DNA from: a virus | DNA length: 64,000 bases | Direction: 5' to 3' (one strand) | IMG/VR virus record: IMGVR_UViG_3300044732_000704 | Location: 29,435 to 93,434 of that record | Shown: positions 36 through 4,129 of the stretch, one piece after another | Layout: the number at the start of each line of letters is the position of its first letter | Numbering within the stretch: position 1 is the stretch's first letter | Notes under the pieces: model-generated | The model's input: the letters and a program-made list of their open reading frames with translations, nothing else | The model's database searches: none | Told to the model about the DNA's origin: nothing | Made by a program: the position numbers and the translations under genes

Positions 36-245
36 TCAATCATTCTTGTTCCAAATGTGTTCAGCAAACAACAATGTACCTAACACGACAATAAACTCAA
101 AACATCCATACCACAGATAATATCCATGCACTTCAGGAATATCTGGATTAGGGAACGTAAAGTTAAATCCTGATACAGCCATGATGATAGCAACCATCAC
201 GTTCATAATTAGAAAAAACACTGTACTATAAGCTAAATTCTTCAT
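36..245 (-). CDS. Small membrane protein, hypothetical
   Basis: 69 aa ORF with two hydrophobic stretches; GGAGG RBS upstream. Confidence 0.6.
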   Translation of the reverse strand: MKNLAYSTVFFLIMNVMVAIIMAVSGFNFTFPNPDIPEVHGYYLWYGCFEFIVVLGTLLFAEHIWNKND

Positions 246-275
246 TTCAATTCCTCCAATTCTTTCTCAACATTA

Positions 276-430
276 GCTAACTGTTCTTTCTGTTATGACA
301 CCCTTCTCCTCTAATCAAGGAGAATTCCTTCTTCAAGACGGCGGTGCCCCGCCGCAGCAATGTTCTTAGACGCATTCACATCCCTATCGTGTTCTGCTCC
401 GCACTCAGAACAAACCCATTGCCGTATTCC
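276..430 (-). ncRNA. Putative TnpB omegaRNA/reRNA (IS200/605-type right end plus about 20 nt guide); 5' boundary approximate
   Basis: Minus strand reads GGAATTCTCCTTGATTAGAGGAGAAGGGTGTCA|TAACAGAAAGAACAG: hairpin followed by TGTCA, like the typical ...GGAGGATGTCAA right end overlapping the tnpB stop. Confidence 0.6.
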
Positions 431-1363
431 AAGACCTGCTCTACCTTTCGGACTACTGTCTGGGATAATCCCGCAGCACGAACAAGTCTGGGTGGAGTAT
501 GCTTCATTAATAACTTCAAAAATCACACCTGCGTTAGCGCATTTATATTCCAATGTAGATTTAATCTGTCCCCAAGAAGCGTCTAAAACAGATTTTGCCA
601 TTTTAGTTTTAATAAGCTTCCGAGAACTAATGTTACCAACAAAGATTGCAGCACTGGAATCTACCAAACTGCGTGTAAACTTATGAATAGCGTCCTTACG
701 TCTATTCTTTATCTTTAAGTGAATCGACCTCACTCTGTCTTTCTTATTAGCTCTTTGCGCTAATTTGAGCTTAGATTCTAACTCACGATACCAACCATTG
801 TCAAGCTTTATTCCTGTTGATGTCACAGCAGCATCTTTACAACCTAAATCTATACCGATTAACTGAGTTCCCTTAGATTTTACAGCCTCGCATTCAACAG
901 CAATGTTAAGATACCACCGACCTTTAGAATCTTCGTTAAATGAACCTGATTTAAGTTTGTATTGCGATATATTATGACAATCCCAAAAGCTAAACAAAAC
1001 ACTATTAAATCTAATTTTACTATCAACCAACTTAATTGTTTGTGGTTGAAAAGGAATCCAACCTAACGATCTACCACTTCCTTTGGTTTTCCTCCAACGT
1101 AGTCGACGTTTCTTAAATTGCCTACGTCGGGTGACATACTCTTTACTTACTTCTTGTATTGTTTGAGCAGGAATCCCAAGCTCTTTACTTGAACCTGCTG
1201 TGTATTTGTTTATATCAAATTCGGATAAAAACACCCCACGCTCTTTGATTGAGCGTGAGCTAAGTTCATTGATATAGTTCCAGACAAAATTCACATTAGC
1301 TGCAACCTTATTCAAATGTTTAATGTGTTTATCTTTCACCCTGAACTTTAATGTTTTTATCAA
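311..1363 (-). CDS. tnpB: RNA-guided endonuclease TnpB (IS200/IS605/IS607 OrfB family), no tnpA
   Basis: RuvC-I GIDLG, rearranged RuvC-II (VGNI ... NEAYSTQ), zinc ribbon CSCC...CSECG, RuvC-III HDRDVNASKNI; likely TTG start at 1363 after GGAGGAG. Confidence 0.93.
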   Translation of the reverse strand: MIKTLKFRVKDKHIKHLNKVAANVNFVWNYINELSSRSIKERGVFLSEFDINKYTAGSSKELGIPAQTIQEVSKEYVTRRRQFKKRRLRWRKTKGSGRSLGWIPFQPQTIKLVDSKIRFNSVLFSFWDCHNISQYKLKSGSFNEDSKGRWYLNIAVECEAVKSKGTQLIGIDLGCKDAAVTSTGIKLDNGWYRELESKLKLAQRANKKDRVRSIHLKIKNRRKDAIHKFTRSLVDSSAAIFVGNISSRKLIKTKMAKSVLDASWGQIKSTLEYKCANAGVIFEVINEAYSTQTCSCCGIIPDSSPKGRAGLGIRQWVCSECGAEHDRDVNASKNIAAAGHRRLEEGILLD

Positions 1364-1367
1364 TTTG

Positions 1368-1583
1368 TTACTCCTCCACTTGAATAAAATGTTCATCAAC
1401 AACACTCTTATACATGTAATGACAAGATTGTTGATTGTTTTTAGGTGTATACAGCTCAGGGACGTAGGCAGATTCTTTTCCTACGTAGAAATCATACACA
1501 TCTCCAGCCTTAAACGCTGGAATATTCCCACTTTCCTCAGATTCATTGAGCATCCAGAAATCTTCAATACATTTAAATTTCAT
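1368..1583 (-). CDS. Hypothetical protein
   Basis: 71 aa ORF overlapping the denV stop; its 3' end carries the RBS for tnpB. Confidence 0.6.
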   Translation of the reverse strand: MKFKCIEDFWMLNESEESGNIPAFKAGDVYDFYVGKESAYVPELYTPKNNQQSCHYMYKSVVDEHFIQVEE

Positions 1584-1974
1584 TGTTTGTCTCCAAATCT
1601 TTCTGCTATACGTTCACGGTTTAATCGCAATGCTTCTTGTGTAACAGTATACCCACCTAAGAATTTATTGTCAATACCTTCAATTAAATCTTTACGTTCT
1701 ACTTGCTGAATTTTATATCCACGATTACGCCACTCACCACACAGTAATTCGTATCTATCAGCGAGCCATTGTAACTTATCAGCGAAATGAGTCATGTGTC
1801 CTGTACCAAGCGTATACTCTTGTGGTTGTTTCTTCAGACGTTTGAAGTTGTAGTAATTTACACCAGTACCTTTCCAATTCTTTACAAGAGTGAATACACG
1901 GGGTAATTCACGTATTCGGCAAGTAAATGTTGTCTGGCCAACTCTACTGGTTCTACGGTGTTTATACGTGTAAT
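1580..1974 (-). pseudogene. denV: Endonuclease V / pyrimidine dimer glycosylase, frameshifted, with ATT start
   Basis: N-terminus (I)TRINTVEPVELARQHLLAEY then, after a 1-nt deletion near 1912, ELPRVF...GHMTHFADKL...RGYKI, matching T4 DenV motifs; span 395 nt = 3n+2. Confidence 0.85.
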
Positions 1975-1984
1975 AAATCTCTCC

Positions 1985-2803
1985 TTATTTAATCCAATTA
2001 TTTACTATTTCTTCGTAGAAAGGTTGCCAAGTTACCTCATCGAAGAAATCATCTATTTCAGTGAGTATAACAAAGTTTTCGTGATGTTTCAATCCAGCAT
2101 CAATCTTTACATCATTCGGATATACATTTAAAAGTGAGATAGGTTTTATTTCCACTATTGTATGGTAATTAGGTAAATAAAAATCCGGAAAGTAATGGTG
2201 AATTCTCCCATCAGCGGCCATGTAAGGCACTGCAAATTCTTTATTCGCTGCTGATATTACCTCAATATTAAACTTTTTACAAAACAACAAGAATTTTTCC
2301 TCATAAGATGACCTGAAGTAGATAGCGTCAACCCTGCCGCTCTTGTGCCAAGATTTTATATCAACTGCAACGTGAATACTCCTATCTAAATCTGGGTCAG
2401 AGTAACGTCTTAGCATAGTCTCTCTTAACCAATCTTTGGTCTTTTGAGTATGTTTATTAGTGCCATTTATTTTCCTGTTTTCGGCAATCTTCTTACTATG
2501 TTCTGCACTTCTTGGGTCTTTTGGTCTATTTTTAGCAGCTAAAGAAATAGCTTCTTTTACTTCAAGCAATTGTGCTACATTTTCTACACCATACCTCTCA
2601 AGCATAGTGGATCTCAACTTTGCTTGTTTTGCTTTCTGGTCTGTATTCCTTATCCTTTTCTCTATTGTCTCTTTTGATTGTTTTCTACCAAGACAGGGGT
2701 TAGGTTTTGATTTTCTATATAGTGATCTGCACTCATCCGAACAAAACCTAGAGCGTGGTTTAAAATGCTCAGTGCCACACCATTCACAGAAATACTTTTT
2801 CAT
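1985..2803 (-). CDS. Free-standing homing endonuclease (NUMOD3-like DNA-binding repeats plus TnsA-like PD-(D/E)xK domain)
   Basis: GRKQSKETIEKR NUMOD3-like motif; RSSYE...YFPDFYL...IVEIKP nuclease motif; N-terminal CxxC. Confidence 0.75.
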   Translation of the reverse strand: MKKYFCEWCGTEHFKPRSRFCSDECRSLYRKSKPNPCLGRKQSKETIEKRIRNTDQKAKQAKLRSTMLERYGVENVAQLLEVKEAISLAAKNRPKDPRSAEHSKKIAENRKINGTNKHTQKTKDWLRETMLRRYSDPDLDRSIHVAVDIKSWHKSGRVDAIYFRSSYEEKFLLFCKKFNIEVISAANKEFAVPYMAADGRIHHYFPDFYLPNYHTIVEIKPISLLNVYPNDVKIDAGLKHHENFVILTEIDDFFDEVTWQPFYEEIVNNWIK

Positions 2804-2913
2804 TTAAACCCCTTAATTTTAAAAAGGTATTCAACAATCATTTTGACTTGATGCACTTTGTTATGATCATAGGCAGCTTCAATTGGACATTTGTTGGTGT
2901 AAAACACGTTCAT
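2800..2913 (-). pseudogene. 5' remnant of a second pyrimidine-dimer glycosylase-like (Pyr_excise) gene, truncated at the endonuclease
   Basis: MNVFYTNKCPIEAAYDHNKVHQVKMIVEY resembles the MNIFxL..P..AA..H.DKHVVKMILE N-terminus; the frame ends in a TGA overlapping the endonuclease ATG. Confidence 0.65.
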
Positions 2914-2945
2914 AAGATTCTCCACAATCTGCTTCAATAAGAGCT

Positions 2946-2973
2946 ATTTTACACGAATGAGTGGTGATGTCAA
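2946..2973 (-). promoter_or_regulatory. Sigma70-like promoter
   Basis: TTGACA-N16-TAAAAT on the minus strand. Confidence 0.65.
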
Positions 2974-2987
2974 TAGCAAATTGCAGA

Positions 2988-3016
2988 TAAAAGAAAGCCC
3001 AGCGAATGCTGGGCTT
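2988..3016 (-). terminator. Rho-independent terminator
   Basis: AAGCCCAGC-GAAT-GCTGGGCTT hairpin with U-tract on the minus strand. Confidence 0.8.
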
Positions 3017-3023
3017 GTGTGTG

Positions 3024-3389
3024 TTACTCTACTTTAGTATCAGCTTGGTTGATAGCACTCTGAATCTCAGCAACAAACTCTTTACACTTAATCAATGCTT
3101 GATGTTCCTTCTGTTTCATCAAAGCTAAAGCACCTTCCTGAACAGTGTCAATGTTTGCTACAATCCATTCCAGCAAACACTTATTAAAAGCTGCGTCAGT
3201 CTCCCAGTAATTTTGACCACCCGTTTGATATTGACCACAACGAACAAGCTTGATTGCTGAATGGTCAACAGAGATAGCGAAACTGTCTCCGCCCATACGA
3301 CCACCACCACGTTTCTGCATAGTAGCCCAACGATCCGCTGTCTCGTAATTCCGTTTTGCTTCCAAATAATCTTGATATACTTTACTCAT
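3024..3389 (-). CDS. Hypothetical protein
   Basis: 121 aa ORF with AGGAGG RBS. Confidence 0.7.
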   Translation of the reverse strand: MSKVYQDYLEAKRNYETADRWATMQKRGGGRMGGDSFAISVDHSAIKLVRCGQYQTGGQNYWETDAAFNKCLLEWIVANIDTVQEGALALMKQKEHQALIKCKEFVAEIQSAINQADTKVE

Positions 3390-3404
3390 TTAAAACCTCC
3401 TACA

Positions 3405-3530
3405 ACAGCCTATCGGCTGGCAGCAAACATTGCTACAATCGTCTACAATCAATTATCTGTGTTCACCCACATCAACACACCCTTTCACCTAAATAATCGC
3501 TTAGAATGAACCCTAGAGCGTTTTAGAGAG
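3405..3530. repeat. Dispersed intergenic repeat with about 10-12 bp phased CTA/TAG arms (copy A)
   Basis: Shares CTACAATCAATTAT, AAATAATCGCTTA and CCTAGAGCGTTT, at near-identical spacing, with 31594-31673. Confidence 0.7.
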
Positions 3531-3556
3531 GAATAGGGTGCTTGTCGGAATGTTTA

Positions 3557-3787
3557 TCATTCCACCTCCATCAAAGTGTCTTTCCAATCCATCCCTTCAA
3601 GGTCTACTTTAACCACTAAATGACTCCACTGCTCCCAATCGTAACACCACCCAAGATCATCATAGAACATAGGTTTCTGGTTGGAAGCATAAACATTACC
3701 TTCTTTTGATGTAACTAAATATTTAGTATCGTCGGTGACGTTAATCAGAACACCGAAGTAGTTTACTGTTTTTCCTAGTAATTTCAT
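3557..3787 (-). CDS. Hypothetical protein
   Basis: 76 aa ORF with GAGGAG RBS and upstream TTGACG promoter. Confidence 0.7.
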   Translation of the reverse strand: MKLLGKTVNYFGVLINVTDDTKYLVTSKEGNVYASNQKPMFYDDLGWCYDWEQWSHLVVKVDLEGMDWKDTLMEVE

Positions 3788-3873
3788 CTCAATCTCCTCA
3801 TTTGTTTCAATAGATACATTCTAATGCACATTATCTTGTGCGTCAAGCATTATTTCACTTTATTTTAGGCAAT

Positions 3874-3898
3874 AAAAAGCCCAGCGAATGCTGGGCTT
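3874..3898 (-). terminator. Rho-independent terminator, same hairpin as 2995-3016
   Basis: AAGCCCAGCGAATGCTGGGCTT. Confidence 0.8.
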
Positions 3899-3904
3899 AG
3901 GTGT

Positions 3905-4129
3905 TTATAAATTTGGATCAGTTAAAGCAGCTAGTGTTCGATCTAGCTCATAAGCTGTAATCAACTCACACAGTTTAATTCTAGGGCAATAACTGTAATA
4001 AGCTACAGTGAACCCCGTCTGTCTAGACATGAGGGATACACAGTGTTGTACATGGTCTAAATCCATGTCAGCAATCAGTAGCTTTCTCCCATCACGAGTG
4101 TTCCAGTATGTGTTTTGTGGGGTGTTCAT
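3905..4129 (-). CDS. Hypothetical protein
   Basis: 74 aa ORF coupled to the upstream gene by an ATGA overlap. Confidence 0.6.
   Translation of the reverse strand: MNTPQNTYWNTRDGRKLLIADMDLDHVQHCVSLMSRQTGFTVAYYSYCPRIKLCELITAYELDRTLAALTDPNL

Follow-up and report, generated by a model that had tools for sequence, protein, structure and literature searches.

How does a gene for a transposon-encoded nuclease come to lie inside a phage operon with no transposase beside it, and could it still act there? TnpB is the most abundant RNA-guided nuclease family, and a member is encoded near the start of a 64,000-nt stretch of viral DNA (the window; bases 29,435-93,434 of the 93,434-bp IMG/VR virus record IMGVR_UViG_3300044732_000704, which has direct terminal repeats). 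The window element is the tnpB-omegaRNA half of an element of the IS200/IS605 family (IS, insertion sequence), belongs to the class with a rearranged RuvC-II site, and is fixed in the phage genome. Its left end is gone, as are its native promoter and 5′ untranslated region (5′ UTR) and any transposase. Where it now lies, tnpB-less relatives carry an 87-aa gene, usually a middle gene as well, and a 156-aa gene, of which only the final 16 codons are left here. The most likely, though tentative, explanation is a fixed and expressed cassette that persists, now or formerly, by homing-type drive among related phages.

Boundaries of the element and the genes it replaced

Homology searches for the empty site covered viral contigs and were queried with both flanking proteins. 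They gave five tnpB-less contigs with four distinct sequences (L007/L008, L009, L010, L011 and L012), while cultured-phage records, searched with the window DNA and the two flanking proteins, gave nothing. The nearest TnpB for which DNA is available is that of a further contig, L098 (81% aa identity). The main features of the locus are as follows.

1583-1368, minus strand: upstream phage gene, 71 aa, intact, 90% identical to that of L007, ending ...QVEE and TAA
1371..1377, minus strand: Shine-Dalgarno (SD) sequence GGAGGAG, within the last codons of the 71-aa gene and 7-9 nt before the tnpB start
1361..1370, minus strand: left junction, where backbone TAACAAAT joins element TGATAAAA within the start codon
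311..1363, minus strand: tnpB, 350 aa, TTG start at 1363-1361, TAG stop at 313-311
295..524, minus strand: omegaRNA scaffold region, overlapping the tnpB 3′ end and the right end
355-338, minus strand: omegaRNA helix GCGGCGG/CCGCCGT
324-304, minus strand: terminal omegaRNA hairpin TTCTCCT/AGGAGAA, with GATGT and GTGTC closing at the 3′ end
295..300, minus strand: right-end terminus TGTCAT, also TGTCAT in L098 and TGTCAA in about 33 other clade members, which end ...GGAGGATGTCAA
275..294, minus strand: predicted guide, AACAGAAAGAACAGTTAGCT, the first 16-20 nt of the flank
242..292, minus strand: orphan tail of the 156-aa gene, 16 codons and TGA, peptide QKEQLANVEKELEELK
36..245, minus strand: downstream gene for a 69-aa membrane protein, conserved in all relatives

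All of the relatives share one gene order: a 71-aa-family gene (ending FIQV(E/K)E before its stop), a highly conserved 87-aa gene (MPATIIAVDFRG...), a middle gene that varies (70 aa, 107 aa or none), the 156-aa gene, and a membrane-protein gene of 69-72 aa. Homology between the window and L007 in blastn covers two segments, 1594 to 1363 at 93% and 294 to 1 at 80%, and none lies in the interval between them; the phage genome carries no other copy of the 87-aa, middle or 156-aa genes apart from the tail. The tnpB block therefore replaces about 0.9 kb, or two or three genes. No known function was found for the displaced genes.

On the minus strand, the TAA of the upstream gene (1370-1368) is followed by CAAA and then by the TTG of tnpB, leaving a gap of 4 nt, and the ribosome-binding site (1377-1371) lies inside the upstream gene, just as the initial annotation had described. 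The same SD sequence serves the 87-aa gene in the tnpB-less relatives. The left junction reads GGAGGAGTAACAAATTGATAAAA in the window (in longer form GGAGGAGTAACAAATTGATAAAAAC), GGAGGAATAACA(A/C/T)ATGCCAGC in the relatives and ...GGTTATTTGTGATAAAAAC in L098, and the switch from backbone to element therefore falls in the start codon. With the junction at this point, tnpB should therefore be translated from the SD of the gene that it replaced, and transcribed within the phage operon.

The DNA shared by the window and L098 elements extends from window position 1362 to 322 only, and comparison with L098 and the tnpB-less relatives reveals no IS left end, 5′ UTR or IS promoter at the left junction. 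Left ends in this clade consist of TTAT/TTAC, 6-8 nt, GCGCCG/GCGCG, a hairpin and GATATAAG, followed by the promoter and 5′ UTR; this motif is not present upstream of the window tnpB. A TTGAT, the transposon-associated motif (TAM) of ISDra2, occurs in AAATTGATAAAA at the left junction and was rejected as a candidate, as a motif placed within the tnpB start cannot stand before a left end. The remark that no tnpA is nearby can be extended to the whole 93,434-bp genome, which has no match to Y1 transposase (PF01797) or serine recombinase (PF00239). Lacking both a left end and any transposase in the genome, the element is, with good support, immobile, as had been proposed.

The right end, omegaRNA and guide

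The 16 nt past the tnpB stop finish the terminal hairpin and end in TGTCAT (300-295). The right-end hairpin and TGTCA align with those of 26 clade members, so that their retention is confirmed, but the end itself is most likely TGTCAT rather than the TGTCA named initially. The boundary was set after T295 on the basis of the TGTCAA and TGTCAT termini seen across the clade, which places the start of the flank, and of the guide, at A294 (AACAG). A pattern search of viral contigs for right ends of the window sub-branch returned only TGTCAA-type clade members, with 58-59% identity.

For the window and 26 clade members (27 sequences in all), the last 230 nt up to the right-end terminus were aligned and folded with RNAalifold, which gave five helices, every one of which is kept in the window. 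Of the cells in the 23 pairs, 98.4% are paired, compared with 44-58% in slid controls; ten pairs show compensatory changes, and none of 500 shuffles reached the observed values. The terminal hairpin of the window is itself a compensated version of the clade CCCCGNC/GNCGGGG, and the single-sequence fold of the window has z = -3.7. The tnpB 3′ end and right end are thus predicted to encode a structured omegaRNA. Rfam holds no model for it, the sole match being a chance one (COG2908, E = 0.38).

Directly after TGTCAT comes AACAGAAAGAACAGTTAGCTAATGTTGAGAAAGAATTGGAGGAATTGAAATGA, whose TGA overlaps the ATG of the 69-aa membrane-protein gene and which also carries the SD of that gene (GGAGGA). In the five tnpB-less contigs the 156-aa gene ends ...LLEQKEQLAKQLADIEKELE(S/N)LK, directly before the same downstream gene, confirming that the orphan C-terminus is a genuine gene remnant. 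It is not, however, the product of a simple insertion, since two or three genes were replaced, and it differs from all five relatives by a 12-nt deletion (four codons, KQLA/D) between 273 and 272. The deletion starts exactly 22 nt past the right end, a short way outside the predicted guide, with GCTAA/GCTGA microhomology on its borders. The idea that it is a scar of TnpB cleavage was rejected, as the microhomology suffices and no nuclease is needed.

The guide of a TnpB is the sequence directly 3′ of the scaffold. The 20 nt at this position match L010 and L011 at 20 of 20 positions and L009 and L008 at 19 of 20, with a lower match in L012, and the site is highly conserved among the relatives. 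There is no second good match in the phage's own genome. The helices and covariation, together with guide matches of 19-20 of 20 in three of the four distinct tnpB-less sequences, support the initial annotation, in which the omegaRNA is intact and takes its guide from the end of a phage gene. As is the case for homing endonuclease genes, the target is present in the gene-less allele, intact in five contigs, and disrupted in the tnpB+ allele, where the right end stands in place of the 5′ side of the site.

A predicted nuclease with a rearranged RuvC-II site

The 350-aa protein matches OrfB_IS605 (PF01385, 4.5e-08) and the Cas12f1-like TNB zinc finger (PF07282, 4e-24) in Pfam, and matches ISDra2 TnpB structures at 2e-20 by phmmer. 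Its RuvC-like OrfB_IS605 domain and C-terminal zinc finger place it, by sequence, among the TnpB proteins. Close homologues begin at the same residue (MIKTLK...), indicating that the N-terminus is native. The residues of interest are:

D172: RuvC-I
G243: position of the canonical RuvC-II Glu
E287: alternative Glu
CxxC...CxxC: zinc finger
D328: RuvC-III

The canonical RuvC triad of D-E-D is incomplete, in that D172 and D328 are kept and the residue aligned by phmmer with the catalytic RuvC-II Glu of ISDra2 TnpB is G243. All four of D172, G243, E287 (in N-E-A-Y) and D328 are invariant across 121 sequences, the window protein and 120 homologues. RuvC-II rearranged TnpBs (RIIr) were described by Altae-Tran et al. 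2023 (PMC10691335); an alternative Glu was predicted there from models to restore the site, and some of the branches are enriched in viruses. Like those branches, the window protein has Gly at the canonical Glu position, Gly being the largest rearranged group, and an invariant alternative Glu about 44 residues downstream, and is assigned to the rearranged configuration on this pattern. Cassettes without a left end that are fused into phage operons, and the guides of such cassettes, are not described in that study.

The reading frame is unbroken by frameshifts or stops, and the catalytic and zinc-finger residues are all present. Compared with the tnpB of L098, the ratio of nonsynonymous to synonymous change (dN/dS) is 0.06-0.2 at a dS of 0.7-2. 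Full-length TnpBs that are 94-96% identical (P0001, P0002, P0028) occur in other samples, one cluster having 15 members. The nuclease looks functional. The rearranged RuvC-II site was missing from the initial annotation, which had called the protein an RNA-guided nuclease; activity is predicted, with E287 as the putative substitute for the canonical Glu. The retention and invariance of D172, E287 and D328 argue that it is not a dead repressor of the TldR type.

A proposed homing-type mechanism

If the cassette is active, TnpB would process the 3′ portion of the tnpB mRNA to give an omegaRNA carrying about 16 nt of AACAGAAAGAACAGTT as a guide. The phage's own copy would be immune because the right end occupies the TAM position. 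During co-infection with a tnpB-less relative, the complex would cut the relative's genome if the intact 156-aa gene there has a TAM before the guide sequence, and the break would be repaired from the tnpB+ genome, with the 71-aa gene as the left homology arm and the 69-aa gene as the right. These flanks share 93% (left) and 80% (right) identity with L007, which repair could use. Repair would copy the cassette in and delete two or three genes, amounting to transposase-independent homing, and failed repair would lead to exclusion of the rival phage.

A stronger form of this proposal, which we regard as unlikely, sees the locus as a gene drive that arose in nature, needs no transposase, is guided by RNA and acts between co-infecting phages. 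The cassette would have swept through all 156-aa alleles that bear a TAM, the surviving tnpB-less relatives would be TAM-less, resistant alleles, and the exact fusion to the translation signals of the displaced gene would be an adaptation keeping the drive expressed once its left end and native promoter had gone.

The TAM and the evidence against cleavage of present alleles

The proposal that the nuclease is aimed at the intact allele of related phages, for homing or inter-phage competition, is supported only in part, and the TAM gives an ambiguous answer: the guide match exists, but the 4-5 nt before it (CTTCTGG or CTTCTTG) are not TTAT/TTAC. The clade motif is known from several families. 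In one Pseudomonadales genome with 14 copies, the flanks diverge right before TTAC/TTAT, which is followed by CAGACACGCCG. In Endozoicomonas-type IS605 elements, which have a divergent tnpA, they diverge before TTAT followed by CGAATGAGC, so that TTAT is at the outer boundary, and eight more solo elements have TTAT/TTAC at the same distance from the left-end motif.

A group of observations weighs against homing as the explanation. Wherever the left end can be delimited in the clade, it is preceded by TTAT/TTAC, whereas the intact alleles read ...AAAAGCTTCTGG (CTTCTGG) or ...CTTCTTG before AACAG, and no TTAT or TTAC lies near the target on either strand in the known intact alleles. A scan of viral contigs with the 16-nt guide gave at least 107 matches, mostly due to chance; among the matches listed, only four known relatives have homologous context, none of them flanked by TTAT or TTAC. 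In a maximum-likelihood tree, the window sub-branch (window, P0001, P0003, P0004 and L098; support 100/100) is nested in the clade, and every other sub-branch includes users of TTAT or TTAC. Unless the sub-branch uses a different TAM, the five intact alleles are predicted to be resistant, cleavage is perhaps impossible, and the present guide may have no natural substrate. A literature search found no cleavage test of a rearranged-RuvC-II TnpB from this clade. The purifying selection seen relative to L098 may largely date from the mobile stage, before immobilisation, and retention of the orphan tail is partly explained by its overlap with the SD and start of the next gene. The junction itself is known from one tnpB+ genome, that of the window.

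Two circumstances would reconcile the homing explanation with these alleles. The window sub-branch, which is sister to L099, L108 and L111 on a branch of 0.33 changes per site, may have switched its TAM, as its right-end terminus changed. Alternatively, the ancestral allele that was invaded may have differed, since TTA CAA CAG in place of CTG GAA CAG would give TTAC before AACAG and leave the frame open. GGAA was also considered as the TAM of the sub-branch, prompted by the TTGGAA before the left-end remnant of L098 and by the CTGGAA before CAG in intact alleles. It was rejected as evidence, as L098 has lost the 5′ part of its own target gene and its junction is probably secondary.

Competing explanations

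An inert relic is a close rival to homing, and quite possible. An IS200/IS605 element would have inserted in the ancestral 156-aa gene and an adjacent deletion would have taken the left end and the upstream genes, leaving a recent, neutral remnant with a reading frame intact for want of time and a ribonucleoprotein without a cleavable target. The lack of a canonical TAM beside the target in any known intact allele agrees with this, as do the dispensability of the displaced genes (this phage has none of them), the decay of the orphan tail itself through the 12-nt deletion and substitutions, and the partial account of that tail given by the overlap with the next gene. Left-end-degenerate tnpB genes also occur in the phage contigs L098 and L002, suggesting that decay of the ends is common in phages. 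Random deletion, on the other hand, would rarely yield a junction exactly in the start codon behind a strong SD, and this precise fusion favours maintenance. So do the right end, complete to its last nucleotide, the intact omegaRNA helices, the unbroken frame with its catalytic and zinc-finger residues, the low dN/dS, and the intact homologues of 94-96% identity found elsewhere, all of which favour maintenance over decay.

Maintenance could also reflect domestication for some benefit to the phage other than homing, for instance by guide-directed cleavage or binding of DNA from the host or a competitor at other sites, or by control of the downstream operon, with the tail guide incidental or another guide used. 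This is improbable, even though tnpB is embedded in a phage operon and predicted to be co-expressed with it and TnpB has been exapted many times (PMC10691335). The retained nuclease residues do not suit a repressor of the TldR type, the phage's own genome offers no second good guide match, and its surroundings showed neither partner genes nor a CRISPR-like array nor additional guide modules. It is far less probable still, and contradicted by the sequence, that this is an ordinary non-autonomous element that remains mobile through a host TnpA acting in trans. Most natural tnpB genes are indeed solo and rely on TnpA in trans, and the right end is intact, but there is no space for a left end: backbone homology with the five tnpB-less contigs reaches to within 1-2 nt of the start codon, L098 shares nothing upstream of that codon, and the left-end motif of the clade (from TTAT/TTAC to GATATAAG) is not present. 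A TnpA encoded by the host would have no left end to act on.

Neighbouring genes and related phage loci

Upstream of the tnpB block, the features of the operon are as follows.

2946..2973, minus strand: promoter-like site TTGACA-16-TAAAAT, following a terminator at 3016-2995, both common to L007 (consensus scan only)
1985-2803, minus strand: endonuclease-like protein, 272 aa (DUF7487, weak Phage_endo_I, PHROG endonuclease and homing-endonuclease families)
1795-1580, minus strand: pyrimidine-dimer glycosylase fragment, 71 aa
1674-1646, minus strand: second promoter-like site (consensus match only)

The promoter-like site at 2946-2973 is the likely start of the operon that now contains tnpB, and a consensus scan found no terminator between tnpB and its neighbouring genes. 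Relative to L007, positions 1595-2926 (minus strand) form a second insertion: L007 has the promoter region (3000-2927) joined directly to the 71-aa gene (1594 onward), and in the window 1.3 kb lies between them. The endonuclease-like gene in this insertion is of the protein type, 0.6 kb from tnpB and in the same operon. With a second nuclease-bearing insertion beside tnpB, the locus is a hot spot for selfish nuclease genes.

Members of the same clade are found at other phage loci. The L098 tnpB (2360-3665 of the 94,953-bp contig JACCDZ010903533.1) is at a different locus in a distantly related phage, where it immediately follows a phage promoter. What remains of its left end retains GCGCCG...GATATAA without the hairpin, the terminal right-end hairpin is shortened, and the terminus is TGTCAT. 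After the right end there is an open frame of 31 codons that ends TAATG at the start of the next gene and resembles an orphan tail; no homologue of it was found. An empty site sought through the upstream 91-aa open reading frame was rejected, this being a complete gene and not the 5′ half of a disrupted one, and no relatives of the L098 flanks were found in viral contigs. In L002 (IMGVR_UViG_3300027365_000282, 2900-4120), a tnpB of 62% identity begins about 55 nt after the stop of a baseplate-type gene. The intervening DNA holds a scrap of tnpA-tnpB spacer, CATAGACCAAGT, with no tnpA and no recognisable left end, and L002 would apparently be a third immobilised copy in a phage.

The cultured Cimandefvirus Ralstonia phage Heva (L183; MT740742.1, 36617-37720) has a tnpB of 54% identity directly before the small terminase gene (terS). 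It ends ...GGAAGTCAA, and the bases that come next, AGGAGAGACGATATG, form the terS ribosome site and start and would serve as its guide. The tnpB-less phages Eline (L185) and Alix (L184) have CATTGACC before the same terS site. The Heva tnpB block replaces about 1.8 kb of Eline, which as a sister phage holds other genes at the locus, and the annotation of phage GP4 places an HNH homing endonuclease there. Phage Hyacinthe has a tnpB 99.5% identical to that of Heva and a different genome size (46 kb). Two short, oppositely oriented stretches of Eline (L185:949-1141) resemble the Heva tnpB at its 3′ end and right end, and may be a protein-less omegaRNA or a right-end remnant. The L098, L002 and Heva loci point in the same direction as the window.

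Comparison with known systems

The window element resembles the TnpB modules of ISDra2/IS608-type IS200/IS605 elements (Karvelis 2021, PMC8612924; 10.1101/2023.03.14.532601) in combining OrfB_IS605 with TNB, in having an omegaRNA that overlaps both the right end and the 3′ terminus of tnpB, in taking its guide from the right-end flank, and in the protection of its own copy, where the element separates the TAM from the target. In those elements TnpB cuts the empty donor site after excision and so restores the transposon (Meers et al. 2023, 10.1101/2023.03.14.532601). The window, by contrast, has no transposase, left end or promoter of its own, so nothing excises and there is nothing to restore; it has Gly for the RuvC-II Glu, and it replaces genes instead of interrupting one.

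Closer parallels to the proposed mechanism come from plasmids and from theory. TnpB carries IS+ plasmids to fixation without help from TnpA (Mears et al. 2025, PMC11870625). For phages that co-infect a cell, 'transposon non-restorative homing' was put forward on theoretical grounds in a 2026 review (PMC13565253). In both, as proposed here, TnpA-independent cleavage of IS-less copies would bias inheritance. The plasmid drive involved complete elements on E. coli plasmids, whereas the window has a truncated element in a lytic-type phage that is known from its sequence, and its rival alleles are those of diverged relatives with 80-93% identity in the flanks. The literature on the function of phage-encoded TnpB was found to hold only descriptive reports.

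The free-standing homing endonuclease genes of T-even phages (SegF, SegB and Mob), which undergo intronless homing and cause localized marker exclusion, are also comparable. There, too, a nuclease gene lies between conserved phage genes, the target is in the gene-less allele of relatives, adjoining the insertion point, and spread would proceed via recombinational repair in co-infection with co-conversion of the flanks. Unlike these enzymes, the window nuclease would recognise its target by guide RNA and TAM, not by protein, and its own allele would be immune since the TAM side has been physically replaced, and not through sequence polymorphism. TldR proteins, nuclease-dead RNA-guided repressors of which some are prophage-encoded, share with the window the state of an immobilised TnpB relative that has no transposon ends and has kept a guide RNA. 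They have lost the RuvC catalytic residues, while the window TnpB keeps D172, E287 and D328. To these systems the window adds a variant form, a cassette reduced to tnpB and omegaRNA, fused into a phage operon and replacing genes.

Significance of the locus

The demonstrated natural role of TnpB is transposon retention after excision, together with the drive effect in plasmids, and stand-alone, transposase-free homing by TnpB in phages has so far been proposed in theory. The locus is a clean, testable case, with boundaries defined to the nucleotide and with displaced genes and a target allele known from five relatives. If the cassette is inactive, it would mean that phage genomes accumulate TnpB relics that are expressed but targetless. 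If homing is the true explanation, the locus would represent RNA-guided intronless homing and a route to the immobilisation of TnpB, a step toward domestication as in Cas12 and TldR.

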